Origin: Candidatus Beckwithbacteria bacterium
GTDB taxonomy: Bacteria > Patescibacteriota > Microgenomatia > UBA1400 > UBA1449
DNA: 64,000 nt
Direction: 5' to 3'
Assembly (NCBI GenBank): GCA_012797845.1
Contig: JAAZOH010000040.1
Coordinates: 57,072-121,071 of the forward strand
Every line of letters starts with the position of its first letter. Within the stretch, counting starts at the first letter, position 1. Below are positions 11,285 through 55,464 of the stretch, piece by piece. The notes under the pieces are model-generated. The model did no database searches. It was not told the origin of the DNA and saw nothing but the letters and a program-made list of their open reading frames with translations. The translations under genes were made by a program, and so were the position numbers.

Positions 11285-13383
<2,099 letters not shown>

Positions 13384-34607: not shown

Positions 34608-34680
34608 GTTCTCTTCACCACCTTTCTTTTATCTTATAGTTTATTAAAACTATCCTTTAATATTTGAAATCTTAAGCAAC

Positions 34681-34702
34681 AAAAAACCAGCACGTGTGCT
34701 GG
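34681..34702 (-). terminator. Rho-independent terminator after the sortase gene.
   Basis: On the minus strand the sequence reads ccagcacacgtgctgg followed by TTTTTTG. That is a 7-bp stem, a 2-nt loop and a T-run. Confidence 0.45.
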
Positions 34703-34903
34703 CTTATGATGTAAGACCTTTGTGGCCAAGATTGTATCTGGTAGTGTAGCTATTTTGCATGCTTTAGCAGTATTTTTTTGTACTGCATAAAAAGATTTCC
34801 ACAGCTTTTAGCAATTTTAAAGTAACGATTTTCTATACACTTGTCAATATGCATTTTGAAAATTATAGCTAACTCAATTATAGTTATAGGTTGCGAATAA
34901 GAA

Positions 34904-35461: not shown

Positions 35462-35471
35462 AAGCTAAACC

Positions 35472-36368: not shown

Positions 36369-36474
36369 AGCTATCAGGGCAGCTATTTAAAAACTTATAA
36401 GATAAATAGGATTATATCACAATTACGAATAATTTCCGAAGTAAAAGTAAAAATAGATTTTAAGTAGAGTATTT

Positions 36475-37728: not shown

Positions 37729-37732
37729 AGCT

Positions 37733-39364: not shown

Positions 39365-40940
39365 GGTATGCCTGCCAATATAGTAACCCTGCTAAACCAC
39401 CACTAATCCAAACTAAACATGTTGCAATAAGTAAATAGTACTGAGTTGCACTAAGATAAGTATGGCCCCAAGTTTGATATACAAAAGATTTTGATTGGTT
39501 ACTTTGCAAAAATTCCCAACTACGTAAAAAGTTGTAGTGTTCAACTCGGCCCGAAAGTTTTTCTAAAGCGAGCACTTCAACCTTGGGAGGAATAGCACTG
39601 CTGGTGATAGCTCCCAATGTATTGATATAAATTGAGTATGCCATTACTGGCAAAAAGATGATTAAAAACCAAGGTTTATGTTTAAAATAATCAACTAGAT
39701 AAGCAATGCCAATAGCTAAAATGGCATAGCCTGGCACCAGATAACGCGAACCAAAAGCCCAACCACCCCAGGGATCACCCCAAAGTGAATACAGAGTTAG
39801 ATTAACCCCAACTATAGCAATCAATACAGCTGCTATATATGGTTTTTTCAAAAAAAGCAGCCAAAGCCCCAAAGCCCCAAAAAACATAATAGGGGTAAAC
39901 CATAAGATACTGCGATCAGAACCAATAAGGTGGGTATAGAGTCCATTTACTAAATTTCTGGTTTTGAAAAAACCAACTGCTGATTTTTTTTGCAGTTCGG
40001 GATTAAGGTACGTTTGCATATCTAAAGTCCCAATTTCAGTTGGCGTGGTTGGCTTCCCTTGCTCATCAATAGCATTAACACTGGAAACCGTCCCGGAAAA
40101 CTGGAAGGGATTGCCATAGGATTGCTGATTGAACCACATAAAAAAATATAGTGGCAATACAACAGTAGCAATAGATAAAATACCGGGTAACCATAGAGAA
40201 ATTTTGACTTTAGCTCTCCCTGGACTAATTATTAACAATCTTCCAGCTGCAAATAGAGCAATCGGAAACATCAAGAATAAATTTGGGTAATCAATAGGAA
40301 TGGCGGCGGCGGCCAAAAACCAAATCAAGCCTAGCGACCACCAGGTTTTAAATTTGATGAGCAAATAGAGACTGGCTAATATTAGAAACGTTGAAATATG
40401 GTGTTGGAAAAACGAAACTCCATACACAAAGGCTGGAGTAGCAAAGAGGAAAATCAAACCTCCCAATAAAGCAGCCAGCTTTGGCACACCTAAAAGTCGG
40501 GCAATAGCTTGGATTAAAATCAGGTTTAAAAGTGCAAAAAGCGCCACAATCGCATAGGTACCAATTTGAGCAGCTCCAAACAACTTTCCTACCATATAAC
40601 CAGGAGCTGTCATAAAAGAAACCCCGGGAGCAAACATGGAAACGTAGTGTCCATTTTTATAGCCTAAATCAGGCGTAGCAAACCGGGCCACCGGCAGGGA
40701 AAAATAAAATGATTTGTCTTCAACCAGCGAGTAAAGCAAGGCAAAGCGACCTCGCTCTGGTGAAAGCTCCAATGGTCCTTTATCTGTCCAGTAAGCACTG
40801 GTCAACTCCTGAGCGACTGGATTACCAAGCCTGCCTCGCAAGGCTAAAACAATAGTTAAACATGCTAGGGCTAAAACGAAAATGGTAATAAAATCAATTT
40901 TTTTAAACATAAGTAAAGTATAGCAAGTGAATAAGGTCAC
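39351..40940 (-). CDS. Polytopic membrane protein, putative GT-C/YfhO-like glycosyltransferase.
   Basis: 529 aa with >10 TM helices. It is operonic with GT and deacetylase genes. No decisive motif. Confidence 0.3.
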   Translation of the reverse strand: MTLFTCYTLLMFKKIDFITIFVLALACLTIVLALRGRLGNPVAQELTSAYWTDKGPLELSPERGRFALLYSLVEDKSFYFSLPVARFATPDLGYKNGHYVSMFAPGVSFMTAPGYMVGKLFGAAQIGTYAIVALFALLNLILIQAIARLLGVPKLAALLGGLIFLFATPAFVYGVSFFQHHISTFLILASLYLLIKFKTWWSLGLIWFLAAAAIPIDYPNLFLMFPIALFAAGRLLIISPGRAKVKISLWLPGILSIATVVLPLYFFMWFNQQSYGNPFQFSGTVSSVNAIDEQGKPTTPTEIGTLDMQTYLNPELQKKSAVGFFKTRNLVNGLYTHLIGSDRSILWFTPIMFFGALGLWLLFLKKPYIAAVLIAIVGVNLTLYSLWGDPWGGWAFGSRYLVPGYAILAIGIAYLVDYFKHKPWFLIIFLPVMAYSIYINTLGAITSSAIPPKVEVLALEKLSGRVEHYNFLRSWEFLQSNQSKSFVYQTWGHTYLSATQYYLLIATCLVWISGGLAGLLYWQAYHEKK

Positions 40941-41716
40941 CGGTGGGTAAAGTAATATTCGGGCAAATCTGGCACAAGTCCTTTTGGAAATAACCCAAAA
41001 ATTTGAGTTTTATAGCCTTTGATCATGGTTTTCTTTTGATCTCCACATTTAGAAAATCTGGTTTTGATCAATTGATTTGTTTTAATAAATTCTGTGTCCA
41101 AATCTTCCTTTAACCCATAAGGAAAATCCAACCAGTAGACTACGTTTCTTGCCAACTTACTACAAACTTTTCTGATAATAATGTGGTCAACATGCTTACC
41201 AACTCCCAGTGGAGCAAAGACTACAGCTTTTTTTGGTATTTGTCTTGCTAGCTGGTCACTAATTTGATTAATCAAAGTATTTTCTTCTTTGGCTACTTGA
41301 CCCAATAACACATGCCATCGATACGTAGGGTAGACGTGTAAAAATTCCGGTAACAGTTTGCCCAAAAATTGTAAAAATTGTTTATTGCTTTGTTTTTTAC
41401 GGAAAGAGGCATCAGTATATGGTAAATGTTCAACTTTGACATTGTGGAGCTTAAACACTTCCCTATCCTCTACTCTTCTATCTGCAAAAAGTTTTTGTAA
41501 ATCTTGGTAACCGTTGACTTTTAAATGCTGTCTCCCTGACAACGTATATGGCCCTTCTGAGCCTTTGGTAAAAACAGTTATGACAGTCACTTTGGTTTTT
41601 GAGCTTAGGTATGCAATCAAATCCCCAGCCGACAAAGCCGCATCATCCAAGTGGGGCGAGATAAAAAAGCAGGGAATTTTTTCTTTGACAATGGTTGCTA
41701 GTAATGTTTTAAACAT
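40937..41716 (-). CDS. PIG-L/LmbE family N-acetylglucosaminyl deacetylase.
   Basis: FFISPHLDDAALSAGDLIAYL matches the PIG-L motif (SPHxDD). Confidence 0.7.
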   Translation of the reverse strand: MFKTLLATIVKEKIPCFFISPHLDDAALSAGDLIAYLSSKTKVTVITVFTKGSEGPYTLSGRQHLKVNGYQDLQKLFADRRVEDREVFKLHNVKVEHLPYTDASFRKKQSNKQFLQFLGKLLPEFLHVYPTYRWHVLLGQVAKEENTLINQISDQLARQIPKKAVVFAPLGVGKHVDHIIIRKVCSKLARNVVYWLDFPYGLKEDLDTEFIKTNQLIKTRFSKCGDQKKTMIKGYKTQIFGLFPKGLVPDLPEYYFTHR

Positions 41717-42818
41717 AATTTTTATTTACTAGAACATCTTTAATTATTTGTTTGTATTTTTCTACTACTAAATCCCAACTAAATATTTTTACTCCTTCTT
41801 CGCAAGCATGGGAAATAGCGGTTCTCAGTTTTTCATCTTGGCCCATTGTTTTAATAGCTTGAGATAATGCTTCTTTATCAAAGTCTTTTACGAGATAGCA
41901 GCAATCTTTAGGAATCCAACTAAGGCCATCAATAGTAAAACCAACTATGGGTAACCGATAGGCTAAAGCTTCCAAAGCTACTACTGAAAAAGTTTCAAAC
42001 CTAGAAGGAATCACAATAAAAGAAGCTTGGCGGAGCAATTTCCTTTTTTCTTTGCCAACAACTTTACCGAGCAATATAACTCTATCTTGCAATTCTAGTT
42101 TGTGTATCATTTTTCTCAACCGATTTTCTTCAGTTTTAGTTCCACTCCCAGCAATAATCAAGTTCTGCTTAACTTGATCCTCAGTTTGTTTATACGATTC
42201 AAGTAAGATATCTAATCCCTTTTGGTCAATTTCCAATCTTCCTAAAAACAGAATAAAATTTTTATGAGTTTTGGTGGTTGGCAAAGCATACACATCAACT
42301 CCATTGCTGACTACATACATTTGAGCTTTAGGATTGACGGCTGAAATTCTGTTTTTAATCTTTTGAGTTAAAACAATAAAATGCTGATAACTACGAAGTC
42401 CAAGGTTTTCAAAAAAAATAAACGGTAGCTTGTACTTGCGCTGCATATCTTCCCCTGCCAGCATGTGCACTAAACCTATCACCGGTTTTTTAGTAAACAG
42501 TGGTAAACAGGTAGTAGAAAATGGTGGGGTAAAGCTTTCAATCCATAAATCATATTGTTCACTGATGGCTTTGTAGATTAAAGCAATTTGAAATGCCAAC
42601 TGACTCAGTTTTGGTCCCAACCAAGTTATTCCAATATGGCAATACTGTATTCTATTGATTTTTTTATCATGACAACCCGGATATTTGCCTGTAAAAATAG
42701 TAACGTTATAGTTTTTAGTTAACGCCTTAGCTACTTTATGTACTGCTAAAGCTCCACCTCCTGCATAGTAAGGATTTTTTAGACTGTCGTAGCTGGAAAA
42801 AACTATACGTGCTTTCAT
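41709..42818 (-). CDS. Family 4 glycosyltransferase.
   Basis: C-terminal FVIPSRFETFSVVALEALAYRLPIV is the GT4 EX7E region. Confidence 0.7.
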   Translation of the reverse strand: MKARIVFSSYDSLKNPYYAGGGALAVHKVAKALTKNYNVTIFTGKYPGCHDKKINRIQYCHIGITWLGPKLSQLAFQIALIYKAISEQYDLWIESFTPPFSTTCLPLFTKKPVIGLVHMLAGEDMQRKYKLPFIFFENLGLRSYQHFIVLTQKIKNRISAVNPKAQMYVVSNGVDVYALPTTKTHKNFILFLGRLEIDQKGLDILLESYKQTEDQVKQNLIIAGSGTKTEENRLRKMIHKLELQDRVILLGKVVGKEKRKLLRQASFIVIPSRFETFSVVALEALAYRLPIVGFTIDGLSWIPKDCCYLVKDFDKEALSQAIKTMGQDEKLRTAISHACEEGVKIFSWDLVVEKYKQIIKDVLVNKNYV

Positions 42819-43723
42819 AAGGTATCTTTAGTAGAACTAATGACAGTCCAATTGGCACTAACTTCCTTTTTATCAAAAAATGCCACCAAGTGAACTAAGG
42901 GTACTACCCCTATATAAATTAAAGTCCATCCAGGGCTTTGCGTCATACTTTGCCACAGTCCCCTCAATTTATGACTCATTGTAATGGTGTATGATTTGCT
43001 GATTAAATCTTTGTCAAAGTTTTTTTCTTGCACATTCTGTGAATGAAGGTAGCGGATATTTTGTTTGAAGTAGTCTCGTAATGTGGCCGGCAAAACAAAC
43101 TGAGCATAGGCTTCAGGTTTATAGTAATATTTTAAACTGTGCGTTTGGCAATATAGGTATGGATAAACATCATCTGCACTAAAGCTAGGAAAAACTAATT
43201 GCTTATAAAGCGGTTTAGCAAAAGCTCTGATAGCGCCTTCGCAAAAATACATTGGCTGATTGGCAATTTTTTTAGTTAAATCCCAAACATGCCATGACAT
43301 ATACGCAATATGTTGAGCAAAAGTTTGTGGTGATATCGGCTTCACATATCCTGAAACTAGTTTAACCTCAGAATCTGTAATCATAGGGGTTAATAATGTT
43401 TGCAAAACTTTTTGGTCAGGAAGTTTAATATCAGCATCAAAAATAACTACGATATCCGCACGACTTTTTGCAAAGATTTGATTAATACAAGCTGACTTTC
43501 CACTTCTATTTGGATTTTCAAATATTTGGATTTTTTGATTTTTTAAAGACTTAACTTGGCTAACCGTTGTATCACTACTAGCATCAGAAATCACAATAAT
43601 ATTTTTGATTTCAAAATCTCTTTGTACTTGATTAAGAATAGTTAATAACAAGGCTTTAATGTTTTTACCCTCATTGTGAGCTGGAATACCGATGGTAACG
43701 GATGGTCTTATAGTTTTGATCAT
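42815..43723 (-). CDS. Family 2 glycosyltransferase.
   Basis: VTIGIPAHNEGKNI...IIVISDASSDTT...IFDADI are GT-A DxD-type motifs. Confidence 0.6.
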   Translation of the reverse strand: MIKTIRPSVTIGIPAHNEGKNIKALLLTILNQVQRDFEIKNIIVISDASSDTTVSQVKSLKNQKIQIFENPNRSGKSACINQIFAKSRADIVVIFDADIKLPDQKVLQTLLTPMITDSEVKLVSGYVKPISPQTFAQHIAYMSWHVWDLTKKIANQPMYFCEGAIRAFAKPLYKQLVFPSFSADDVYPYLYCQTHSLKYYYKPEAYAQFVLPATLRDYFKQNIRYLHSQNVQEKNFDKDLISKSYTITMSHKLRGLWQSMTQSPGWTLIYIGVVPLVHLVAFFDKKEVSANWTVISSTKDTL

Positions 43724-44652
43724 ATAGTTAAGATGTGATGTAAAAATTTTAGTGACGAGTTTTGGTTGGCATCAACAACTGCAGTCAGCTCCAAAAATAT
43801 GGCATAAATAGCTAAGGCTTTAAAAATTTGTTTTTGTTTTGGGGTTTTCAAAATAGTCTGTATAGTTTGGCTTTGCCAAAATAGTTTGAACAAATCCTGA
43901 TCTTCCCACAGATCGGTCAAAAAATCGATAATCTCAAACAAAGGATGAGTCAAAACTGTTAACTGGAAATCAATAATATAGACTTTATTGCCTGGCGCTA
44001 CGAGTAAATTATAATCACCAATATCCCGATGCGCTAAAGCCAGTTCATTGTGGGTTAGCAGCAAGGGTGTGCTTGCAAAAAAAATGCTAATAGCCGACCA
44101 AAGTTCACTTATTTTTTTTGGGTACTGCAGTAAAGCTTTGACAGCAAAAGCTACAAAAGTGCCAATATTGTAATTCATGCCCCGTTTTTTCAATTTACTA
44201 AAAACAGCTTTGTTTTGGACTTGTCCAAGATGGTGCAAATAAGCAAACACGTTTTCATACAAGCTAATTTTTTGCTTGGCTGATAAGTTACTTTTATTAA
44301 CGGTTACACAGTCAATCTTTTCAAATAGAATTACAATTCGTGTAGGCTTAACAATAAAATGGAGTAATTTGGGAATTAAAATATTTGGATACTTTTTTTG
44401 TAAATTAAGTCTTTCTTGCCTGCTTAGCTGGTTAAATAATTGATGGAACAGCAAGTCATTTGCTATCCAGTAACGATCAAGATTTGGAATGTTGCCACTC
44501 CACATTTTAGCTATCGCTTGTCTACCTTGATTATTTTCATACCAGGCATAACGATAACTAGTTTGATGATTACAGCTTTGCGCAATAGCTTTAAAACGGT
44601 ACTTACCCACTGTTTTAGGAAAATGATTTTGTTTACTTGGATTTTTAGACAT
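43720..44652 (-). CDS. Protein-kinase-fold small-molecule phosphotransferase (APH/choline-kinase-like).
   Basis: LAHRDIGDYNLLV...YIIDFQL matches the Brenner HxDxxxxN plus IDF/DFG-like motifs of the APH/ChoK family. Confidence 0.55.
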   Translation of the reverse strand: MSKNPSKQNHFPKTVGKYRFKAIAQSCNHQTSYRYAWYENNQGRQAIAKMWSGNIPNLDRYWIANDLLFHQLFNQLSRQERLNLQKKYPNILIPKLLHFIVKPTRIVILFEKIDCVTVNKSNLSAKQKISLYENVFAYLHHLGQVQNKAVFSKLKKRGMNYNIGTFVAFAVKALLQYPKKISELWSAISIFFASTPLLLTHNELALAHRDIGDYNLLVAPGNKVYIIDFQLTVLTHPLFEIIDFLTDLWEDQDLFKLFWQSQTIQTILKTPKQKQIFKALAIYAIFLELTAVVDANQNSSLKFLHHILTI

Positions 44653-44661
44653 AGGAGTAAC

Positions 44662-45228
44662 TTATGAGCTCAATAATCTATTAAAAAACTCCATTTTTCT
44701 AAGTTGATAGTTTCGCACCGAAAGATGGTTGGCAGATGTTTTGAGGTTTTTATACTCAGCTAAAATTTTAGAATTGCTTTGTAATTTTTCAAAAATTTCC
44801 AATTGCATTTTGAGAAAACTTGACTGTGGGTCAATGATGGTAAATTCAAGCTCAACCTGTTTATAATCAATTTTCCATTCAACATAACTAGGTCTGGTTT
44901 TAGTGGGCAACCCAAATTTCGCTTCGATAATTGGGACTATATTGTTGAAATTTTTAGGCTCACAAGGCATAAACAAATCTACATCACCAATACCTTCTAT
45001 ACCTAAATTAGTTGAGCCAACAAAGTAAACAGTAGTACCGGGAAATGTACTTTCAGCCCAAGCAATGATTTCACAGGCTACTTTTCGGGCATGGCCGGAA
45101 AATGGTTTAATAGCAATTTTTCTTTTTCCAGAATAAGTAAATGAGTATAAGTAATCTTTCGGTGTCTGCCAAAACAAGGTCAGGTGAAATCTTAATGTAT
45201 CTAGTAGTTTTTTTATCGTCAGTTTCAT
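44662..45228 (-). CDS. Nucleotidyltransferase-fold protein (Pol beta/GrpB-like).
   Basis: VYFVGSTNLGIEGIGDVDLFM resembles the GS-x-n-DxD minimal nucleotidyltransferase signature. Confidence 0.4.
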   Translation of the reverse strand: MKLTIKKLLDTLRFHLTLFWQTPKDYLYSFTYSGKRKIAIKPFSGHARKVACEIIAWAESTFPGTTVYFVGSTNLGIEGIGDVDLFMPCEPKNFNNIVPIIEAKFGLPTKTRPSYVEWKIDYKQVELEFTIIDPQSSFLKMQLEIFEKLQSNSKILAEYKNLKTSANHLSVRNYQLRKMEFFNRLLSS

Positions 45229-45231
45229 AGT

Positions 45232-48200
45232 TTAGGCTTTTATAATCTCAATAAGTTTTTGACTGCTTTTATCCCAACTAAACTGCCCAGCCCATTTCTG
45301 AGCTTCTTGCTCCATTCTGGTCCTCAGTTTTTTCTTAGTCAAAAGCTGGGTAATTTTCTGAGCAAAAGCACCGCTATCACCATGAGGAACTAAGTAACCG
45401 GTATGGGGATTAGAAACGGAATCCCGCAAGCCAGGGACATTGGCCGCCACTACTGGGGTACCACAAGCATTGGCTTCAATGACCGAGATACCCCACCCCT
45501 CCATTGAAGACGGATAAGCAAAAACCCAAGACTCTGTTAGGAGTTTGTATTTAGCTTCTTCACTAACTTTACCTACAAAAGAAACAGTGTCTTGCAAATG
45601 AAGTTTTTTAACCAGTTTTTTGAGCTGTTTTTTATGCTCTCCAAAACCGGCAATAGTTAGCTTTGCTTTAGGCTGTTTTTGTTTAATCTCTACCATCGCT
45701 TCAATAAGTGTATCTATTGATTTATATGCTTTTAATCGGCCCAAATACAGGATTGATGGGTAGGAAGTTTTTTTGCTATTTTTGGGACTGCAAACTGTCA
45801 CCCCTGGATTGATAATGGCAATTTGATGTTTTTTGCCCAGACCAATTTTGATCATGTCTTTTTTAGAAGACTCGGACACCGTGATCATTTCCACATTACG
45901 ATACACCCAAGGCATCAGTTGGCTTTCTAAAAAGGTAGCTAGCATGGCTGAAAAGGGGTTGAGGTTTTTACGAAAAACTTCTTGATGCACATGATGAACT
46001 AAGCCAACAATCGGTTCTTTGGCATACAGTGGCGTAAAAAAGGGAATGCCATTTTCACCGTCAATAATCACATCATATTTACCTTTAAACCGAAATAGGT
46101 AGTAAAAGAATGCCCAAATGTAGACAGTATAAAAACCACCCCGCCTGACAATATGGACACCGTCAATGGTTTCAAACTTAGGATTGTGGTGATCATTACC
46201 ACAAAAAACTGTCACTGTGTGGCCTTTTTCCACCAACTGTTTGGCAATTTCATGGACATAAACCTCAGCTCCCCCAGCCCAAATATGCTTGGTATCACGC
46301 CAGTTAAAAATCAAAATCTTATAGCTATCAAGCTTCTTTTTTTCTGGAGCAGGAACAGATAAAAACAGCCCTAAAAAATCAGTGATATTTCCCCAAATAG
46401 TCGGCAAGGCATCAGCAAAAATATGCAGAAAAGCCATGGCTGACAAATTGGCCAATCCCACAATAGCCATTACCCAAACAATTTGACTCACACTACTATG
46501 AAACAAAACAATGCCAAAAATTTGCACCAAGGCAAACATAAAATTGACAGTTGGGAAAAGGTGCTTATTCCTAGCCTGATGGAAGGTGGCAATAATATTG
46601 GCCACCGTGAAGTAAAAGATAGCAATGCCGTAAATTGGCAAAAGTCCAACTACCGGAACTATTTTACTACCCAAGAGTAATGGTGTGGTGTATTTACCCA
46701 ACAGACCAACAAATAGGTAGGCTAATAAACTTACTCCACTGGAAAGATAAAAAAGCTTATAAAAAATTGGTTTACTGGCTTTACTCTCCCCCTCAGCTTT
46801 ACTCACAATCGGTAAAACAAACTGGCTAAACAGGCTGCCAATCATGTAAATCATTTTGCCCACCAAAGCTACTAGGGCATAGTGACCAGCGTCACTAGGT
46901 GAAAGATAATGTTTGGCTAAAATTACGTCAAAGCTCAAAAAAGCTACAGATGAAAATTTCAATAAAACTGAACTTGAGAAAAATTTAACTGGAAATTTGT
47001 ATAAAGCCGGGCTTTGTTCAATGTGCTTCTCCTTAGTTTTTTTGGCTGCATACCACCCAACTAGAAACGAAACAGCCATAGATAAGGGAATCGCCATATA
47101 AACCCAATGCTCAAAACCAAGTTGAACTAATAACACGGTGAAGACTAATTTACTGGTAGCTTCAGCTGCAACCATAAAAGCTAAAGTTTTAAATTGTAAA
47201 ATTCCAGACAAATAACCACTATCAACTGCTGCTACCGTGCCAATAAACCAAATTGGGGTAAATAGTATAAACGGGATGACACTTGAGGAATTAAAGTAAT
47301 GACTGAGAAAAGGCGTAGTTAATAACCACAGAGCCGTCAAAGCTAAACCGATATAAACTACCTTGCTACGAATGTGAGCCCAGTAGCTTTTGATAGCCGT
47401 TTGATACTTACCAAAATAGTAGGCACTTTTATTGGTAATAGTCCGGGATAAACCGCTTAGAGGAATAGCAGATAAAAACAGGAAGTTGCCCATCAGGCTC
47501 ACTAAACCAAAACTTTCCAAAGAAATAGTTCTAGATAGATAGGCGTTATAGAGAAAATTCAGCACATTACCCAACATGGAGGCAGCCACTAAAATCCCAC
47601 CCGATACCGCATCAGTGCTTATTAAAAATCCAAATCTGCGGCCAATAAAACTTTGCCTATCAACTGATTCAACTTGCTGTTCCGCTTGAGCCTCGGCCTG
47701 TTCCTGTTGCTGTCCTAAATGCAAACCGTGAATGGTTTTTTCCCAGTAGTACGGTTTGACTATAAACTGCCATAGGGCTTTTACTGCCGCTAGGCTTACC
47801 ATCAACCAGTACACAGGAATCAAAAAGACAAATTTGACCAGTTGCCACTGTTCTCGCTTGGCACAGCCAATCATGTAATAGTAGATAAATAAGAAATTAC
47901 CAAAAATCAGTGAAGTCATAGCCATGTAAAAAATTGAGGCCGGATAGAGGGATTCGATAGTCGGACCAACGATGGCGTAGAGCGAAAAGTAAGCAATTGT
48001 TGCTAACCATAAAATCGGATTAATGAGCATGAAAGCAATTTTGCCCCCCACTACCAATTGAAAAATAAAAGCATGCCAACTCTGATTTTTGACAAACTGA
48101 ACCGGGTGACGCATGTGAACAAAGTAAGTTTGGATATAGCCTTTAATCCATCGGGATCGTTGCCTAAACCAATTGCCTACTTTACTATTAGCCTCCTCAA

Positions 48201-49842
48201 GAGTTGTCGAATCAATCATGGCAGTTTTAAAACCTTCTTTAAAAAGCCTTACGCCCAAGTCACAATCTTCAGTCACATTGAAAGCATCCCAACCCTGCAG
48301 CTTTTGCAATTCTTGAGTACGGAAATGGTTGCTGGTACCGCCAAGGGGAATAGTGGTATCTATTGACTGCAAACCGGACAAGGTAATATCAAACCAAAGC
48401 GAATATTCGGCTGTAAACAGCCTGGTGAGAATATTTTGCTCAGGATTGTAGTAGTTAAGTTTGGCCTGCAAACACTTGACGTCATCCGAAGCTTTATTAA
48501 AAGCAAGATAGGCTTTTTTAAGCTGCAATGGATCAGGTTGGTCTTCTGCATCATAGATAACCAAAAATTCACCAATAGCCTGCTTAAGACCATAATTACA
48601 AGCTTTGGGTTTTGTTTTAGGTTGGGAATGAGGGACAACAATAATTCTGACATAATCAGGCAAATTTAGTTTCTCGGCAGCTTCAATCGTAACCCTGTCA
48701 TCCTCTTCCAAAAGCAACTGGACATCAAGTTTATCCTTGGGCCAATCAAGCTTAGCAATTGATTTCAAAAAGTGTGGCAAAACATGAGCTTCTTTGTATA
48801 GCGGACAAAGAATGGTGTAGATGGGTAAAAGCTCTGGTTTTAAAGCTTGAATTTCTGCTTGGCTAACTGAAATTTCTGGCGGGAAATGGAGACTTTTTAA
48901 AATTAAATAGAGATTAAATAAAACATCAATAAAATAGATTGAGCTTAAAATCGCAACCACTACTTTTAATGTCTGAATAGGATTTAGGCATATGCCCACA
49001 GCCACTGAAGCCAAAATTAGAAATATAGTCAATTTTTGCCAATGCTTCAAGCTTGTAATAGCTGATTGATGTAATTCTAACTGTGTATGAGTAGTAAACC
49101 GTCTCCGTTTATAGCCAATTACACCCTCTTTATTTTGATCAATATACAAAGGCTTGACGTGATGAAGACGCTGCCAAATCGACAAGCTTAGTAGTTCAAA
49201 ACTGGCTGAAAATAACTTTGATTTCCGGTTACCGTGTTGGCGTCCATGATAAGGTACTTCCACAGTTCCAATACTAAAACCTGCCTCAACGCTCCTACGG
49301 ACAAATTCTAGATCAAAGCTCCAATTCCCTGGCTTAATTTCAATATGATCAATAATTTTCTTTTTAAAAACTTTAATACCGGATTGAATATCAACCTGTA
49401 GATTAAATAGTAATGTACCAAAAATAAATTTATACAAAGAAGCTAGTAGCTTTTTACCAACCCGCTGTTTGTTTTGATATTTCCTACTACCTATAACTAA
49501 ATCATATTGCTTTATGCTTTCAGCTAGTTCTGGAATTATTTCGGGAGGATACGCTAAATCAGCGTCAATAAAACCAATAGTCTGGTATTTGGCAGCCTTA
49601 ATTCCCACCCAAACAGCTTTACCTTTCCCAGAAGATTCTTTCCTAGTTATTATTTTAAAAGGATATTCCTTATTAAGATTTTTCAAAACTTTTAAACTTT
49701 TATCGGTTGAATGATCATTGACAACAATAATTTCGAAATGCCTAAAATTTTTTTGAAGAGTTTCCAACAACCTGGGGATTAAAACAGGAAGACTTTCCTG
49801 CTCATTTTTTACTGGAATGATAATACTAATCGAAGCTAGCAT
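45232..49842 (-). CDS. Giant 1536-aa multidomain glycan synthase fusion. Domain order: GT2 (DPM1-like), processive GT2 synthase (QxxRW), polytopic Wzx/MOP-like membrane domain, then GT4.
   Basis: N-terminal SIIIPVKNEQE...VVNDHSTD (first GT2). Central IYDAEDQPD...TEDCDLG...QRSRWIKG (cellulose-synthase-like D,D,D,QxxRW). Residues ~aa 600-1100 are hydrophobic and helix-rich. The C-terminus LTESWVFAYPSSMEGWGISVIEANACGTPVVA carries the GT4 EX7E motif. Confidence 0.7.
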   Translation of the reverse strand: MLASISIIIPVKNEQESLPVLIPRLLETLQKNFRHFEIIVVNDHSTDKSLKVLKNLNKEYPFKIITRKESSGKGKAVWVGIKAAKYQTIGFIDADLAYPPEIIPELAESIKQYDLVIGSRKYQNKQRVGKKLLASLYKFIFGTLLFNLQVDIQSGIKVFKKKIIDHIEIKPGNWSFDLEFVRRSVEAGFSIGTVEVPYHGRQHGNRKSKLFSASFELLSLSIWQRLHHVKPLYIDQNKEGVIGYKRRRFTTHTQLELHQSAITSLKHWQKLTIFLILASVAVGICLNPIQTLKVVVAILSSIYFIDVLFNLYLILKSLHFPPEISVSQAEIQALKPELLPIYTILCPLYKEAHVLPHFLKSIAKLDWPKDKLDVQLLLEEDDRVTIEAAEKLNLPDYVRIIVVPHSQPKTKPKACNYGLKQAIGEFLVIYDAEDQPDPLQLKKAYLAFNKASDDVKCLQAKLNYYNPEQNILTRLFTAEYSLWFDITLSGLQSIDTTIPLGGTSNHFRTQELQKLQGWDAFNVTEDCDLGVRLFKEGFKTAMIDSTTLEEANSKVGNWFRQRSRWIKGYIQTYFVHMRHPVQFVKNQSWHAFIFQLVVGGKIAFMLINPILWLATIAYFSLYAIVGPTIESLYPASIFYMAMTSLIFGNFLFIYYYMIGCAKREQWQLVKFVFLIPVYWLMVSLAAVKALWQFIVKPYYWEKTIHGLHLGQQQEQAEAQAEQQVESVDRQSFIGRRFGFLISTDAVSGGILVAASMLGNVLNFLYNAYLSRTISLESFGLVSLMGNFLFLSAIPLSGLSRTITNKSAYYFGKYQTAIKSYWAHIRSKVVYIGLALTALWLLTTPFLSHYFNSSSVIPFILFTPIWFIGTVAAVDSGYLSGILQFKTLAFMVAAEATSKLVFTVLLVQLGFEHWVYMAIPLSMAVSFLVGWYAAKKTKEKHIEQSPALYKFPVKFFSSSVLLKFSSVAFLSFDVILAKHYLSPSDAGHYALVALVGKMIYMIGSLFSQFVLPIVSKAEGESKASKPIFYKLFYLSSGVSLLAYLFVGLLGKYTTPLLLGSKIVPVVGLLPIYGIAIFYFTVANIIATFHQARNKHLFPTVNFMFALVQIFGIVLFHSSVSQIVWVMAIVGLANLSAMAFLHIFADALPTIWGNITDFLGLFLSVPAPEKKKLDSYKILIFNWRDTKHIWAGGAEVYVHEIAKQLVEKGHTVTVFCGNDHHNPKFETIDGVHIVRRGGFYTVYIWAFFYYLFRFKGKYDVIIDGENGIPFFTPLYAKEPIVGLVHHVHQEVFRKNLNPFSAMLATFLESQLMPWVYRNVEMITVSESSKKDMIKIGLGKKHQIAIINPGVTVCSPKNSKKTSYPSILYLGRLKAYKSIDTLIEAMVEIKQKQPKAKLTIAGFGEHKKQLKKLVKKLHLQDTVSFVGKVSEEAKYKLLTESWVFAYPSSMEGWGISVIEANACGTPVVAANVPGLRDSVSNPHTGYLVPHGDSGAFAQKITQLLTKKKLRTRMEQEAQKWAGQFSWDKSSQKLIEIIKA

Positions 49843-50039
49843 AATAATATAGAAACCAGGCTTGAATCATTGTAAGTACTTTAAATTAAGACCTATATAA
49901 TTCGATAATTAATTATAAATGAATTTTATATAAGTATTATACCTAATATTACAGATATAGCAATATTTTCCTATATTATTAATATAAATGACATTAAGTT
50001 ATGAAAATTGGGAGGGGTTGAAAAAAACTTAAGGAAAAA

Positions 50040-51002
50040 TTAGCGGTTATGCCATTTCCAGGCAGAAGTCACGATTGTTTCCAGATCTGAATATTGAGGT
50101 TTCCAGCCCAAATCCTGCTGCAGCTTTGTGCTATCCGCAATAAGCTCATTAGCATCACCTGGTCGGCGTTGTGAAATGTTTACTCGAACTGACTGACCTG
50201 TAACTTTTTCAACCATCTCAATAATTTGTTTATTCGAGTAACCTTGACCAGTTCCGGCATTATAAACATTAGTAGCATGACCTTCGCTTAATACCTGCAA
50301 AGCCATAATATGTGCTGAAGCCAAATCTAATACATGAATATAATCGCGAACGCAGGTGCCATCAAAAGTCTCATAATCATCACCAAATAGAGTAAATTCC
50401 CGTTTTTCCTGCACAGCTTTGATAATATTGGGGATAAGATGACTTTCTGGCTCATGAGCTTCACCTAAACTACCATCCAATAAAGCTCCAGCTGCATTGA
50501 AATAACGAATGGTAATAGAGCGTAAATGGTGAATTTGATCAAACCAACGCAACATCCGCTCAACCATTAATTTGCTTTCGCCATAAGGGTTAACTGGGGT
50601 TTTAGGATCGTCTTCTTTGATCGGAATCTGAACCGGATTACCATAGACTCCGGCAGTAGAAGAAAAAATCAGTTTGTCGACTTTGACATCAACCATAGCT
50701 CGCAGCAACTGTAAAGCCCCATTAACATTGTTATGAAAATATTTTCCCGGATCAACCATGGACTCGCCCATCTCAATCCAAGCGGCAAAATGCATGACTG
50801 CTTCGATTTTGTGCTGAGCAAGAGTTTTTTTGACAAATTCAAAATCCGTAGTTTCGCCAATCACCAGCTCATAATCTTTGACTCGCTCCCGGTCACCATG
50901 TTGCAAACTATCAAAAATTACTACTTCATGGCCAGCTTTTTTAAGCTCATGAGCACAAATCGAACCAATATATCCCGCTCCACCAGTAACTAAAATTTTC
51001 AT
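50040..51002 (-). CDS. galE: UDP-glucose 4-epimerase.
   Basis: MKILVTGGAGYIGSICAHEL...YGESKLMVERML (YxxxK) shows full-length GalE similarity. Start trimmed to MKILVTG. Confidence 0.85.
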   Translation of the reverse strand: MKILVTGGAGYIGSICAHELKKAGHEVVIFDSLQHGDRERVKDYELVIGETTDFEFVKKTLAQHKIEAVMHFAAWIEMGESMVDPGKYFHNNVNGALQLLRAMVDVKVDKLIFSSTAGVYGNPVQIPIKEDDPKTPVNPYGESKLMVERMLRWFDQIHHLRSITIRYFNAAGALLDGSLGEAHEPESHLIPNIIKAVQEKREFTLFGDDYETFDGTCVRDYIHVLDLASAHIMALQVLSEGHATNVYNAGTGQGYSNKQIIEMVEKVTGQSVRVNISQRRPGDANELIADSTKLQQDLGWKPQYSDLETIVTSAWKWHNR

Positions 51003-51003
51003 A

Positions 51004-51462
51004 TTATGTTTTATTGTAAATAAAGTGAACAATTTTTACTAATTTGCCTTTTTTATTTTTAATCCAACCAACTAAGTATAGTGCTAGCAAAATCCCTCCA
51101 ACATCAATTAACACATCTCTTATTGTCGAAGTCCGACCATAGGTAAAGCGTTGGTGGTATTCATCAGACATAGCATAGAGAGTACCTAAGACAGCCGTCA
51201 CTATTTTGTAATTTTTAATAGCATATGTATCTAAAAATGTCTGCTTTAAAGCTCTAAAAAGTAAGGTAAATAAAATAGCGTACTCGGTCACATGAGCTGT
51301 TTTTTTGATAACTACATCCCACCAAATAAGATAGGGAGTTTTGGTTGAAGGCAAGGAAGAGAAGAAAAAGATTACCCCACACCATAGTAACACTGGCAAC
51401 CATAACCTGATCATCTTGATTTTTCGAAATGGACAAGAATTAAACATAGTACTTAGTGCCAT
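51004..51462 (-). CDS. VanZ-like family membrane protein.
   Basis: 152 aa with 4 TM helices and ...KTAHVTEYAILFTLLFRAL, as in VanZ-like proteins. Confidence 0.5.
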   Translation of the reverse strand: MALSTMFNSCPFRKIKMIRLWLPVLLWCGVIFFFSSLPSTKTPYLIWWDVVIKKTAHVTEYAILFTLLFRALKQTFLDTYAIKNYKIVTAVLGTLYAMSDEYHQRFTYGRTSTIRDVLIDVGGILLALYLVGWIKNKKGKLVKIVHFIYNKT

Positions 51463-51512
51463 AGAGTACTATTGTACCGCAAGAAGGTGTTTCGAAGTAG
51501 GTTTATATAAAT

Positions 51513-52748
51513 CTAATTTTTCTTAACTTTTTGTAAAAACTTATTAAGTTTTGGCTTCATCACTGGCACACTAGCCCCTCCAATCATTGCTAATCCCAAA
51601 CCAGCAATCCCAAAAGGCAGTAGTGGTTTTTTAGTTCCAGATCTAGAACTAACTTGCTCACCTAAAACTGAAGATATTGGCGTAGCAGAGGATGTGCTTA
51701 GTAACTCTGGTAGTTTTCTTTTGGCTTCTGCTGAATTAGTGCTATTTTTAATAGTTGATTTAGGAGTAGTAGTTTTTGTACCTAAAACTTGGGGGCTAGG
51801 CGTTGGCGTTGGGTTTTCACTTTCATCTTCCTCTTCATCACTTTCTTCTTCAATACAGCTACTATTTGCGCTGTTTTGACTTGGCTCAGCCAGACACCAG
51901 TTATCATTTACCAAAGCCCATGATATGCCTTTGCTAATTTCTGGATATTCCAAACTGAATTTTTCTTCCAAAGCAGCATTGAATAATTTGAGTAAATCTC
52001 CACTATTATTTAGAGCAATATCGTTAACCTCATAAGCTTTATATGATTTACTAGCTATTTCCAGATCGGCAATGATTTCTCCATCTTTATTACTCTCTAA
52101 AGCATTGCGGTCTTTCAAGTACCAACCTTCTAAGTTAACGGAGTTGTCATTGCCATTATAAAACTCCACCCACTCAGCTCCAGTTTCTGGAGAAGGAAAA
52201 ACTTCAGTAATTTTGATATTGTCGTAGTTTTGGTAAGTTTTAGTTTCAGAGGTTGGAGTCGGAGTTGAAGTTGGTGATAGCTCAGAGGTAGAAGTTGTTT
52301 CTGAGACTATAATCTTAATCTCTTTTTCATCGCTATCAATATTGTTAGTAGTCTCAACTTTTTGAACTCTAATAACCAAGTTATTTTTACCTAACTCAGC
52401 AGTATCCTTTACTCTAAATATTGCTGATTGTTCTGGATTGATTTGTCCAGTTTCTGTAGTTATTAATACTGGAAAACTAACCCAAGAACTATTATCACCC
52501 AACCACTTATTACTTTGAGGATTAAAGGTTTCAGCTTTATTAAGGGTATTATCTACACCAATTCTGATTTTATAGTAGTATTCTGAGTTTGAATCTAAAT
52601 CACCCGTAAAACTTAAGCTACTTTCCTGATTAATTTCAATTTGTTGCGGATAAGAATTAATATTGGGAATTGCCCAAACAAACCGTGGAAACGAAATAAG
52701 AAAAAATAAAACTACTAAAAAAACTATGCTACGAAGCAAAGTAGACAT
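51513..52748 (-). CDS. Surface protein with a lamin-tail domain, a Ser/Thr/Pro linker and a C-terminal hydrophobic anchor.
   Basis: Signal peptide. IKITEVFPSPETGAEWVEFYNGNDNSVNLEGWYLKD is the LTD signature. The C-terminus is ...RKLPELLSTSS...LLPFGIAGLGLAMIGG...KPKLNKFLQKVKKN. Confidence 0.55.
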   Translation of the reverse strand: MSTLLRSIVFLVVLFFLISFPRFVWAIPNINSYPQQIEINQESSLSFTGDLDSNSEYYYKIRIGVDNTLNKAETFNPQSNKWLGDNSSWVSFPVLITTETGQINPEQSAIFRVKDTAELGKNNLVIRVQKVETTNNIDSDEKEIKIIVSETTSTSELSPTSTPTPTSETKTYQNYDNIKITEVFPSPETGAEWVEFYNGNDNSVNLEGWYLKDRNALESNKDGEIIADLEIASKSYKAYEVNDIALNNSGDLLKLFNAALEEKFSLEYPEISKGISWALVNDNWCLAEPSQNSANSSCIEEESDEEEDESENPTPTPSPQVLGTKTTTPKSTIKNSTNSAEAKRKLPELLSTSSATPISSVLGEQVSSRSGTKKPLLPFGIAGLGLAMIGGASVPVMKPKLNKFLQKVKKN

Positions 52749-52775
52749 AGTTTAATAGTAACAAAAAACTACATA

Positions 52776-53219
52776 CTAATCTTTTTTGAAAGGAACAATT
52801 GTACCAATACCTTGATTTCCAAGTCTTCGAATCCTCTCTCTAAAAGTTTTTTCTGGTTTTTGAAATAACTCTTCTTTATCAAGTCCCTCTTCTGTTAAAG
52901 TAATATCCTGTGAATAAACTTCAATTGCTAGTTCCCATAAATCCATTGGTGATAATTCAAGAGCTGGATCAATTGTCTGCAATTCGTCTAAAATAGCAAT
53001 CAATTTAGCCCTGATTTGTAAATCAGTTTGTTTTAAAGATCCATCATTAACTATTAGTTTGGAAATTCTATTTATTATTGATGTCATTCTTTCAACGCCA
53101 TTCTTATCACCAATTGAAGAACTTTCATTCAACATACCCGTTGCAATCCAATATAAGCCAGCGCCAATATTTATTGAAGTGATTGAATTAAACCTGAGTA
53201 TGTTTTGTTCTTGCATCAT
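52776..53219 (-). CDS. Hypothetical protein.
   Basis: 147-aa ORF with no recognised motifs. Confidence 0.25.
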   Translation of the reverse strand: MMQEQNILRFNSITSINIGAGLYWIATGMLNESSSIGDKNGVERMTSIINRISKLIVNDGSLKQTDLQIRAKLIAILDELQTIDPALELSPMDLWELAIEVYSQDITLTEEGLDKEELFQKPEKTFRERIRRLGNQGIGTIVPFKKD

Positions 53220-53325
53220 TAGAAGCTATATTATAAAGCAAAAATTTTCATTCTGAACTTGTTTTGCAAATTCAATATCTTAAGATTTTGCAGCAGGATT
53301 CTAAAGTGATTTTGACTGACAATAC

Positions 53326-54540
53326 CTAATAGTTCACATGCAAATAATACGTCTCCAAATCCCCATCCTTATGATCGACTCGGACATAACGTAGGCGACA
53401 GCCACCAGAACCACCATAACTACCACGATAAAGCGTCCCATCTTGGACTGCTCGAACCTCAGTTGAACCACCTAAAATATCAATTCCATTATGAAATGAG
53501 TAGATCTGACCGACCCAGGTGTTTTGGACTGCCCAAGTACTACCATACCCTTGATTCATTCTAATTTTAGGAGATAGTGGCCAAGACCAGTTCCCACTAG
53601 GATTAAAGGGATCACCTTCATTACAATCTCCTCCCCCAGAACAGTTATCGTGATCAATGCCTGATAAATAAGAAAAGGGATTATAGGTATTACCATTACC
53701 ATCAGCTACCGTAAAATGTAAATGGGTCCCACTGGAATTACATGATGAACCAGTAATAACCGAAGCAATCTTATCACCAGCCTTAACTTCACCTACTTCT
53801 TCCTCATCTCCCCGACCAGCAATAATAGCCTGAATCGCTTCAAACTCAGATCTAGCTTGAGACAGCAATGATTGGAAACGTGCCTCATCATTTTTAGTAG
53901 CTACCAATAAATCTTGCTTAACTGCTTTTTGTGAAGCCAAAACTGTCTGCTGATTTTGTAAAAAAGTTTGCAGCTCTTCCAGTTCTTTTTGTTTTTCTTC
54001 TTTTAAAGCTTTTTGTTTATCAAAGTTTTGCTTAGTCTCTTCCAAGGCGTACATCACCTCTTTATCGTGCATTTGAGCAGCCTGCAGATACTTAACTCTT
54101 GAAAGTAGATCACTAAAATCATTAGAGGCAAATAGTAAATAGACTGAAGGCATAAACGAGCGTTTATAGGTTTCTTCGATTCTATTTGTAAGAAGAACTG
54201 TAATTTCATCCAAGCTTTGATCAAGCTGGTTGATTTTGACAGCTAAATCCTCAATTTCGCTTGTAAGTACGGCAATTTCTTGCTCTGTTTTAGTAATCCG
54301 AGCAGAAGTTAAGTAAATTTGGTTATCCAAAACTGCAATTGTGGAGGCCAGTGTACGCTGTTGGGATTTAGCTTCTTCAATCTTTTGTTCATATTCTTTA
54401 ATTTTTTCTTCCAGTTCATGCAGTTTATCTCCCTGCTCATCAGCCAATGAACTGGTCGGCAATACTAAAAGCAATAATAGTAAACCAATAAAGCTTAAAA
54501 GAATACTAAGAATGATGTTTTGTTTGCGGAAAAGCTTCAT
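53326..54540 (-). CDS. EnvC-like coiled-coil M23 (LytM) peptidase family protein.
   Basis: Signal/TM at the N-terminus. A long coiled coil spans aa 35-230. C-terminal SGTHLHF and FHNGIDI are M23 signature fragments. The gene is immediately downstream of ftsX. Confidence 0.6.
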   Translation of the reverse strand: MKLFRKQNIILSILLSFIGLLLLLLVLPTSSLADEQGDKLHELEEKIKEYEQKIEEAKSQQRTLASTIAVLDNQIYLTSARITKTEQEIAVLTSEIEDLAVKINQLDQSLDEITVLLTNRIEETYKRSFMPSVYLLFASNDFSDLLSRVKYLQAAQMHDKEVMYALEETKQNFDKQKALKEEKQKELEELQTFLQNQQTVLASQKAVKQDLLVATKNDEARFQSLLSQARSEFEAIQAIIAGRGDEEEVGEVKAGDKIASVITGSSCNSSGTHLHFTVADGNGNTYNPFSYLSGIDHDNCSGGGDCNEGDPFNPSGNWSWPLSPKIRMNQGYGSTWAVQNTWVGQIYSFHNGIDILGGSTEVRAVQDGTLYRGSYGGSGGCRLRYVRVDHKDGDLETYYLHVNY

Positions 54541-54577
54541 AGCGTATCTGTCAACTATTAGCTACTAACTACTTGTG

Positions 54578-55456: not shown

Positions 55457-55464
55457 AAATATAG

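Follow-up and report, generated by a model that had tools for sequence, protein, structure and literature searches.

Which steps of a surface-glycan pathway can be joined in one polypeptide, and do they serve one assembly route or two? The question is raised by a 64-kb window (the whole stretch of 64,000 nucleotides analysed here) from Candidatus Beckwithbacteria, a lineage of the Microgenomates within the Candidate Phyla Radiation (CPR, or Patescibacteria). The CPR makes up a large share of bacterial diversity; to our knowledge, almost nothing is known of CPR envelope glycans, which probably mediate attachment to host cells. A single ATG-to-stop open reading frame (ORF) in the window encodes a protein of 1536 amino acids (aa), termed the megaprotein below, in which four modules follow each other: a family 2 glycosyltransferase (GT2; M1), a synthase (M2), a membrane domain of the MOP superfamily (M3) and a family 4 glycosyltransferase (GT4; M4). 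At a probability of roughly one half, we read the megaprotein as a modular "megasynthase" for one Microgenomates surface glycan, which would couple two normally separate assembly routes. The gene and its modules are as follows.

45232..49842, minus strand: megaprotein gene, single ATG-to-stop ORF (ATG at 49842, stop at 45232), 1536 aa
49138..49842, minus strand: M1 (aa 1-235), soluble GT-A domain of the polyprenyl-phosphate glycosyltransferase type (DPMS/GtrB/ArnC-like)
47683..49137, minus strand: M2 (aa 236-720), membrane-embedded processive-type GT2 synthase
46318..47682, minus strand: Q/E-rich variable linker and M3 (aa 721-1175), divergent MOP-superfamily domain (Wzx/MurJ/MATE fold) with about 12 transmembrane (TM) helices
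45232..46317, minus strand: M4 (aa 1176-1536 plus stop), GT4 with GT-B fold, retaining family

Folds and families of the four modules

M2 is the best conserved module, with 56-68% identity among CPR loci, compared to 27-37% for M1, 26-41% for M3 and 50-60% for M4. It comprises two N-terminal TM helices, a GT-A domain, an interface helix bearing the QRSRW motif and about four C-terminal TM helices. Two Pfam families match it, PF13641 (aa 342-568, E 2e-29) and PF13632 (aa 428-624, E 5e-21), and the PDB sequence match is E. coli BcsA (E 6e-12). We used 56 sequences to model aa 236-1175 with AlphaFold2 and obtained a mean predicted local distance difference test (pLDDT) score of 86.4. Structural similarity search of the M2 half of this model against the PDB using Foldseek revealed BcsA of E. 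coli and Rhodobacter (8e-11), the hyaluronan synthase HAS (5e-10) and the minimal cellulose-synthase-like PcManGT (2e-9); the BcsA entries 9b8v, 4p00 and 5ej1 and the HAS entries 8smn and 7sp7 span E 8e-11 to 3e-9. The motifs D382, D431-A-E-D434, T524-E525-D526 and Q561-R-S-R-W565 are invariant or nearly so in 42 sequences. By motif and modelled fold, M2 is therefore predicted to be a processive membrane GT2 synthase of the BcsA/HAS/PgaC/chitin synthase type. It scores far under the equivalog cutoffs of CelA (57.4 vs 699 bits) and PgaC (53 vs 422 bits), and no BcsB, PilZ or GH8 match was found among the proteins of the nine-gene operon that the megaprotein gene opens, BcsB being present only beside the distant orthologues of loci L019 and L026. 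Because of these negatives and the low CelA score, we place the locus outside the Bcs cellulose synthase system.

M1 was matched by PF00535 in the whole-protein scan (aa 6-165, E 3e-39). Its top PDB sequence matches are DPMS, GtrB and ArnC, at E 9e-22 to 4e-13, among them the Pyrococcus furiosus DPMS (5mlz, E 9e-22), the Synechocystis GtrB (5eke, 8e-18) and ArnC (2e-13). The alignments pass through a common DADLxxPPE(I/V/L)IP motif, in which FIDADLAYPPEIIPEL is aligned to MDADLQHPPEVIPKL and IDADLQDPPELIHEL, and the D93xD95 motif is invariant in 42 full-length homologues. M1 is thus assigned by sequence to the DPMS/GtrB/ArnC type, yet to no named equivalog. It has no TM helix of its own. The next TM pair, at aa 271-309, is assigned to M2 because the stand-alone M2 homologues of other phyla align from about aa 236-294; lacking its own anchor, M1 would therefore be held at the membrane through the fusion.

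M3 is divergent in terms of family models. The whole-protein Pfam scan gave no match in the M3 region; when aa 700-1175 were scanned alone, PF01943 (Polysacc_synt) matched aa ~750-1016 at 42.7-42.9 bits (cutoff 28.2), and a MOP family of Pfam (PF01943 or PF13440) was found in only four of 16 orthologous M3 segments. Sequence search against the PDB, with the single sequence and with a 16-sequence profile, gave no match for M3, so that a fold search was needed. In the model, M3 consists of about 12 long helices (aa ~743-1141), preceded by the linker, which has low pLDDT. Foldseek placed the M3 half with MATE (6hfb), MurJ (9ukv and 6nc9) and the lipid III flippase WzxE (9g95) at E 1e-6 to 4e-6, with target template modelling scores of 0.6-0.74 and a probability of 1.00. 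M3 is predicted from this model to adopt the MOP fold (MurJ/Wzx/MATE-like).

M4 is matched by PF13439 (aa 1190-1348, E 6e-17) and PF00534 (aa 1354-1517, E 1.6e-47), and its EX7E motif, E1448-x7-E1456, is invariant in 42 homologues. The best NCBIfam matches are MshA, EpsE, Agl16 and BshA, each under its cutoff. Since the helix counts imply an even number of TM helices for each membrane block, all three glycosyltransferase domains (M1, M2 and M4) are predicted to be cytoplasmic.

The identity and order of the four modules given in the preliminary description were borne out by hidden Markov model, fold and motif evidence, with the reservation that the M3 family match appears only when M3 is scanned alone. 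Of the Pfam families it had proposed, PF00535, PF13641/PF13632, PF01943 and PF00534 were matched, and its motifs (D, DxD, TED and QRSRW) were all found, with catalytic residues invariant across the 42 full-length homologues. Each module evidently belongs to a known superfamily, and all of them score under the cutoffs of the named equivalogs.

Authenticity and modularity of the fusion

An ORF of this size could be a chimera, the result of an assembly error or of a frameshift that was corrected in silico. The identical protein is found in the NCBI contig of a metagenome-assembled genome (MAG), where it is named "glycosyltransferase [Candidatus Beckwithbacteria bacterium]", and in the ENA and Logan assemblies of ERR1876141; all three derive from this one read set and hence are not independent, as an artefact would allow. 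We nevertheless give an artefact next to no probability. Each of the 120 best-matching homologues listed aligns over 99-100% of the protein at 48-54% identity, with lengths of 1513-1607 aa; they come from many samples, including named Gottesmanbacteria, Woesebacteria and Curtissbacteria, and the contigs of several are 0.9-1.2 Mb long. Genomes of GTDB species, including Roizmanbacteria and Moraniibacteriota, also yield full-length fusions, and Daviesbacteria and Levybacteria are further named among the homologues of two membrane-protein neighbours (529 and 543 aa). The module junctions are in frame with variable linkers, and true splits show a proper ATGA overlap. Because full-length orthologues are widespread, we reject an assembly artefact and take the ORF to be genuine on comparative grounds.

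The preliminary description had called a fusion of this length unusual for a small genome. With at least 120 homologue clusters at 90% identity, some of them on contigs of 0.9-1.2 Mb, it appears instead to be the standard architecture, and the four-module fusion the normal form of the gene, in Microgenomates. Comparison of split and fused forms in related genomes showed that the fused form is the usual one and that split and shuffled forms exist beside it. Loci L006 and L008 carry a two-gene form, [M1-M2][M3-M4], with an ATGA stop/start overlap. L009 encodes an M1-M2-M4 protein of 1083 aa without the MOP domain, L014 an M2-M4 protein without M3, L011 only M1-M2 (748 aa) directly followed by the two membrane proteins, and L010 only M3-M4 (808 aa). 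Further domains are appended in the following proteins.

L003:36-5558: M1-M2-M3-M4-GT4, at least 1840 aa (the contig end cuts the ORF), second GT4 at the C-terminus
L017:185-5815: M1-M2-M3-M4-APH kinase, 1876 aa, C-terminal 347 aa matching APH at 41.9 bits
Protein P0410: M3-M4-GT2, 1119 aa
Protein P0445: M3-M4-GNAT/FemAB-like acetyltransferase, 1195 aa

In all fused forms the order M1-M2-M3-M4 is constant. When M3 was searched by itself against 1.84 billion representatives, 140 proteins matched at E <= 1e-30. Read by eye, the best 150 rows of this search comprise about nine four-module proteins, four M2-M3-M4 proteins, nearly 50 M3-M4 proteins, some of which carry an extra GT2 or GNAT domain, and about 45 stand-alone M3 proteins; the architecture was checked with Pfam in nine proteins from the search. 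From these counts the modules behave as building blocks of fixed order, with M3 tied most tightly to M4. Public records label these proteins "glycosyltransferase" or "hypothetical protein"; the JGI label "XagB", a Xanthomonas biofilm GT2, adds nothing specific.

The distribution bears directly on the proposal of the preliminary description that the protein is a self-contained synthase-exporter, in which a single chain would carry out every step: priming by M1, polymerisation by M2, export of the M2 polymer through the MOP domain and finishing by M4. That four modules share one conserved frame, with invariant catalytic motifs and an order that is fixed wherever they are fused, would suit such a machine. 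We hold it to be very improbable all the same. M2 already possesses the TM architecture of BcsA and HAS (2 + ~4 helices), which forms the polymer channel in solved relatives, and it persists without M3 in L009, L011 and L014, while M3-M4 and M3-only proteins are common. Flippases of the Wzx/MurJ type are generally known to carry lipid-linked units and not free polymers, as with GacK/WpsG (PMC10821137). Nor does the protein seem self-contained: conserved separate membrane partners are needed, the most conserved of which is a GT-C protein of 543 aa. Because M2 persists without M3, and M3 is mostly found with M4 or alone, we tie M3 to the GT4 and a lipid-linked branch rather than to export of the M2 polymer.

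The GT-C partner and a proposed coupling of two assembly routes

The partner of M2 is encoded by the eighth gene of the operon.

37733..39364, minus strand: 543-aa GT-C-fold membrane glycosyltransferase, conserved M2 partner, of a family without Pfam or NCBIfam model

It has a polytopic TM core with the GT-C fold, and its best structural matches are Pmt4, STT3B, Pmt2, AglB and PglB. Two aspartates, D61 and D67 in YNDARSHLDIGRR, are invariant directly after TM1; the loop that holds them (aa 56-107) has pLDDT below 50, and its side of the membrane is a prediction. The protein has no Pfam, NCBIfam or PDB sequence match, and none was precomputed for 120 homologues either. This family and M2 go together in every CPR locus with enough sequence. 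Outside the CPR, stand-alone M2 genes at 44-52% identity occur in Chloroflexi, Actinobacteria, Cyanobacteria (Chroococcidiopsis) and Victivallales, and a member of the 543-aa family lies directly 3' of the stand-alone M2 in Chloroflexia (L012, L013 and L015), Anaerolineales (L025), Actinomycetes (L023) and Chloroflexota (L026). In L013 (9773-13750) a single ORF of 1325 aa consists of GT2_3, PMT_2 (33.6 bits) and GtrA_DPMS_TM (40 bits), this fused Chloroflexi relative being the only one through which the family reaches PMT_2, and in L015 synthase and GT-C share one frame without an ORF end between them. The synthase is thus fused to a DPMS-like GT2 and a MOP flippase in the CPR, and to a GT-C and a GtrA flippase in Chloroflexi. 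On this comparison, two lineages appear to have independently fused the synthase to parts of extracytoplasmic glycosylation, and the partnership of synthase and GT-C looks obligate, with a GT-C family that appears to be undescribed.

In L012, the synthase-GT-C gene is apparently broken by a frameshift near 12585. The Chloroflexi synthase-GT-C-GtrA ORF has a gene of glycoside hydrolase (GH) family GH113 before it and GH5 genes and a Ser/Thr kinase with beta-propeller alongside; no GtrB/DPMS-like gene was seen among these neighbours (GH113, GH5 and Ser/Thr kinase).

In two distant relatives, L019:9035-11332 (Chroococcidiopsis) and L026:9404-11329 (a Chloroflexota MAG), the M2 orthologue follows a BcsB gene, matched at 192 bits in L026, and carries an N-terminal MshEN, a domain known as a receptor of cyclic di-GMP (PMC5013675). 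Such surroundings are, as judged from the gene content, those of a genuine processive exopolysaccharide synthase. The L026 operon runs from BcsB through MshEN-GT2 to a GT-C of the 543-aa family, a combination for which no description was found in the literature.

The coupling that we favour would proceed as follows. M2 would polymerise a backbone from a nucleotide sugar and thread the glycan through its own TM channel. M1, held at the membrane via its fusion to M2, would load a sugar onto polyprenyl phosphate, which M4, together with the neighbouring GT2, GT4 and cytoplasmic de-N-acetylase, may extend and edit as a lipid-linked sugar. M3, as a putative Wzx-type MOP flippase, would flip the polyprenyl-phosphate-linked sugar outward, where the 543-aa GT-C, perhaps with the 529-aa protein, would move it onto the emerging backbone or join the backbone to an acceptor. 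The shuffling of modules follows the halves predicted from this scheme: the [M1M2][M3M4] split, the M3-M4 proteins, and M1-M2 with two membrane proteins in L011. Searching the nine operon genes (36475 to 49842) with Pfam and NCBIfam gave no initiating phosphoglycosyltransferase (WbaP/WecA), Wzy or chain-length regulator; for want of these three in the operon, we place the locus outside the Wzx/Wzy-dependent pathway, and the lack of an initiator and of Wzy fits a route linked through polyprenyl monophosphate.

The same parts could instead serve a lipid-linked oligosaccharide for protein glycosylation of the archaeal Agl or the bacterial Pgl/PMT type, in which M1 primes, M4, GT2 and GT4 extend, M3 flips, and the GT-C modifies surface-layer proteins, pilins or sortase substrates, the M2 polymer being unrelated or co-regulated. 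The structural matches of the GT-C listed above, the resemblance of M1 to AglJ and dolichyl-phosphate hexose transferase and of M4 to Agl16, the existence of M3-M4 independently of M2, and a sortase with its probable substrate just downstream of the operon are all in keeping with this account. We consider it unlikely: the 543-aa family stays physically linked with M2 in several phyla, and in Chloroflexi, where neither M1 nor M4 is present, the two form one protein. M2, as the most conserved module, also argues for a central enzyme rather than a passenger.

Several observations weigh against the coupling we favour. The top structural neighbours of the 543-aa GT-C are protein O-mannosyl- and oligosaccharyl-transferases, so that it may act on proteins or lipids. 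The AlphaFold2 model has a predicted template modelling score of 0.57 and gives no support for a fixed interface of M2 and M3. In L009 and L014, the forms without M3, no flippase was seen in the DNA at hand. M1 stays far under the cutoffs (325-529 bits) of its best NCBIfam equivalogs, ArnC, PgfS and AglJ, with which it scores 57-68 bits. The Chloroflexi and Cyanobacteria relatives have neither M1 nor M4 near M2, and M2 and the GT-C can therefore function without them. The hints about the polymer also conflict, as GH113/GH5 in Chloroflexi suggest a beta-mannan or glucan, and the CPR deacetylases suggest an N-acetylhexosamine (HexNAc). A more specific version, which we hold only tentatively and with the odds against it, is that the BcsA/HAS-type synthase and the new GT-C family form an obligate pair in Microgenomates, present in another guise in Chloroflexi and Actinobacteria, so that the polymer would be branched or anchored on the outside while it emerges and would be the main secondary wall polymer of these ultra-small cells. 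The polyprenyl-phosphate sugar for this pair would be made and flipped by the domains fused to the synthase.

Compared to known systems, the closest precedents appear, by analogy, to be the four-component systems for extracytoplasmic glycosylation in streptococci and lactococci, GacI/GacJ-GacK-GacL and WpsA/WpsB-WpsG-WpsJ, every part type of which seems to be present in the CPR system. GacI/WpsA is a DPMS-like GT2 without TM helices that makes GlcNAc-P-C55 and is activated by a small membrane partner, to which it is sometimes naturally fused (PMC10821137). In lactococci, cytoplasmic glycosyltransferases (WpsC-F) extend the lipid-linked sugar. In both systems the Wzx-type GacK/WpsG flips the sugar, and the GT-C GacL/WpsJ attaches it to a separately exported rhamnan (PMC10821137). 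That rhamnan backbone is assembled on a lipid carrier and leaves the cell through an ABC transporter, whereas the candidate backbone enzyme of the CPR system is a BcsA/HAS-type synthase. Moreover, the CPR system differs in placing up to five or six activities in one polypeptide and in using a GT-C of an undescribed family; the likeness is one of scheme, with no sequence-level orthology shown.

M2 shares its fold, TM architecture and D/DxD/(T)ED/QxxRW signature with the synthase-dependent systems BcsA-BcsB, class I HAS and PgaC/PgaB. Its non-CPR orthologues have the cyclic di-GMP sensor and a BcsB neighbour, and the deacetylase of the cluster recalls PgaB; unlike Bcs and Pga, the CPR operon lacks BcsB, PilZ, BcsZ and a PgaB-like secreted deacetylase. 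The order of polyprenyl-phosphate sugar synthase, flippase and GT-C is the logic of GtrB-GtrA-GtrC, CsbB-GtcA-YfhO and ArnC-ArnEF-ArnT. The Chloroflexi relative even possesses a GtrA domain, and the window itself holds a GT2-GtrA fusion and PMT_2 GT-Cs at 4666..12406. By contrast, the CPR flippase is of the MOP rather than the GtrA/SMR type, and its GT2 has no TM helices and is joined to the synthase and a GT4. The Haloferax Agl pathway (AglJ, AglD, AglR, AglS and AglB) combines DPMS-like GT2s acting on dolichyl phosphate, cytoplasmic glycosyltransferases, the Wzx-like AglR and GT-C transferases; its target is a protein, and it has no processive synthase. M1 matches AglJ and M4 matches Agl16, both weakly and under the family cutoffs.

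Neither a synthase joined to a polyprenyl-phosphate GT2, MOP flippase and GT4 nor one paired with a GT-C is known to us, and no description of the four-module fusion or of the synthase-GT-C pairing was found in the full-text literature. What appears to be new, from the comparisons made here, is therefore the combination: synthase, polyprenyl-phosphate GT2, MOP domain and GT4 in one chain, and a synthase paired with an undescribed GT-C. The locus offers a conserved, compact and clonable candidate pathway for a major Microgenomates surface polymer. Two Rosetta-stone fusions, of DPMS-like GT2, synthase, MOP and GT4 in the CPR and of synthase, GT-C and GtrA in Chloroflexi, indicate enzymes that work together, and a GT-C family without a Pfam model partners a processive synthase in several phyla. 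These sequences are common and already deposited; it is the fusions that give a specific and testable prediction of how two pathways couple. If the coupling is real, it would blur the textbook divide between synthase-dependent and lipid-carrier-dependent polysaccharide routes, and would make available one chain in which the coordination of polymerase, flippase and glycosyltransferases could be studied structurally. If it is not, the protein, currently annotated only as "glycosyltransferase", would still be a useful phylogenetic and functional marker.

Operon neighbours and the rest of the window

The nine genes from 49842 to 36475 are separated by overlaps or by gaps of at most 10 nt, and follow the megaprotein in the order 188-aa protein, APH, GT2, GT4, PIG-L, 529-aa protein, 543-aa protein and secreted 443-aa protein. 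The seven operon genes other than those of the 543-aa GT-C and the megaprotein are listed here, together with GalE upstream of the operon.

50040..51032, minus strand: GalE, UDP-glucose/UDP-GlcNAc 4-epimerase (TIGR01179 415 bits, cutoff 262), 197-bp gap upstream of the operon
44662..45228, minus strand: 188-aa soluble protein, possible Pol-beta-fold nucleotidyltransferase (GrpB-like), weak match (GrpB E 0.06)
43720..44652, minus strand: APH-family (kinase-fold) phosphotransferase, 310 aa (PF01636 29.5 bits, cutoff 23.2), megaprotein C-terminus in L017
42815..43723, minus strand: stand-alone GT2, 302 aa (PF00535 78.3 bits), after the megaprotein in L004, L009, L014 and L017
41709..42818, minus strand: stand-alone GT4, 369 aa (PF00534 97.8 bits, and PF13439), fused to the megaprotein in L003
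40937..41716, minus strand: PIG-L/LmbE-family de-N-acetylase (PF02585 59.4 bits), without TM segment or signal peptide
39351..40940, minus strand: 529-aa polytopic protein with about ten hydrophobic/TM segments, candidate second GT-C
36475..37806, minus strand: secreted 443-aa protein (417 aa in the public record) with N-terminal hydrophobic segment, last conserved gene

The preliminary description had assigned the adjacent genes to the same pathway, in agreement with their tight packing, their synteny in the CPR and the fusion of the kinase or a second GT4 onto the megaprotein elsewhere. Its naming of APH kinase, GT2, GT4 and PIG-L held, whereas the nucleotidyltransferase, the 188-aa protein, has only a weak GrpB-like match; of its two GT-C proteins, the 543-aa one has that fold, and the call for the 529-aa one is unconfirmed. 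The L007 orthologue of the 188-aa protein matches GrpB at 22.6 bits, under the cutoff, and the sequence includes GS...GDVDLF, which we take to be a nucleotidyltransferase motif. The phosphotransferase and the possible nucleotidyltransferase adjoin at 43720..45228 (minus strand). The APH and Pol-beta folds are best known from the modification of aminoglycosides, which are amino sugars, and by analogy the two proteins could activate or modify a sugar, such as a de-N-acetylated hexosamine.

The PIG-L enzyme is present in the window and in L007, and a deacetylase of carbohydrate esterase family 4 (CE4, PF01522) takes its place in L003, L004, L009 and L014; both kinds are without signal or TM segments. 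A de-N-acetylation step thus appears integral to the cluster, filled by two unrelated families, and it hints at a HexNAc that is turned into a free amine; our guess for the polymer is a HexNAc-containing glycan, partly de-N-acetylated. The stand-alone GT4, about 31% identical to M4, adjoins PIG-L in an arrangement that mirrors PIG-A/PIG-L, MshA/MshB and BshA/BshB. This suggests a further route, to a membrane glycolipid or lipoglycan (like lipoteichoic acid, lipoarabinomannan or a glycosylphosphatidylinositol), in which GT4 and PIG-L would make a glucosamine-lipid anchor, M3 would flip it, and M2 or the GT-C would extend it. The NCBIfam matches of the GT4s include MshA, BshA and GlcNAc-phosphatidylglycerol synthase, all under cutoff, and GT-C enzymes are generally known to make lipomannan and lipoarabinomannan in Actinobacteria. 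We think this route quite improbable, however, as CE4 replaces PIG-L in many clusters, the GT4/PIG-L pair is absent from several, and the company of M2 relatives, BcsB and glycoside hydrolases, is that usually seen with free exopolysaccharides.

The 529-aa protein shares 29-50% identity among CPR loci. It reaches NF047440 at 30.8 bits against a cutoff of 200, PF03901 was matched in one of 120 homologues, no PDB or profile match was found for it, and hhalign to the 543-aa family gave a probability of 7%. The 443-aa protein shares 39-56% identity in L004, L006, L007 and L017. Its N-terminal domain looks catalytic, without a family match, and has invariant CPECENGG and LGEFGAP motifs; a CarboxypepD_reg-like beta-sandwich was matched in four of five members of the family and was the only match in a PDB profile search. 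Read by eye, the two motifs are reminiscent of those that hold the acid/base and the nucleophile in clan GH-A hydrolases. Comparison with the Chloroflexi GH113 gave BLASTP E 0.6-3.5 and an hhalign probability of 2.9%, though LGEFGAP aligned with the SEIGYR segment of GH113. That the protein is a GH113/GH5-like hydrolase is a guess. GalE is likely a supplier of sugar nucleotide; its synteny is inconsistent among other loci, and its membership of the cluster is uncertain. Promoter and terminator scans over 34500..53500 found as many candidates in the shuffled as in the real sequence and were uninformative.

Directly upstream of GalE, at 51004..56163 (minus strand), lie genes for an FtsE-like ABC ATPase, FtsX, an M23-like peptidase, a Lamin-tail-domain (LTD) protein and a VanZ-like protein. 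The lipocone paper (PMC12419801) describes such a set, of VanZ-2, ABC transporter, peptidase and LTD protein, as a "patescibacterial operon". A second glycan cluster is found at 4666..15747 (minus strand), and a sortase with a secreted protein downstream of the operon.

4666..6429, minus strand: PTPS_related membrane protein
6368..7837 and 9776..11281, minus strand: PMT_2-type GT-C proteins
9027..9779, minus strand: GT2
11285..12406, minus strand: classical GT2-GtrA fusion
12403..13371, minus strand: GDP-mannose 4,6-dehydratase, above the Gmd cutoff
13384..14361, minus strand: Gmd-like paralogue, under the cutoff
14440..15747, minus strand: UDP-glucose 6-dehydrogenase
34904..35461, minus strand: sortase (PF04203)
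35472..36368, minus strand: 298-aa secreted protein, C-terminus with LADTG, a hydrophobic stretch and KKSVR

From the second cluster it follows that the organism invests heavily in extracytoplasmic, GT-C-based glycosylation. The 298-aa secreted protein looks like an LPXTG-type sortase substrate, and orthologues of sortase and substrate adjoin the glycan cluster in L005 and L007. The 64-kb window contains no tRNA or tmRNA gene. Its genes are almost all on the minus strand, and the GC skew stays below zero over the whole window, as would fit a single replichore of a small genome.

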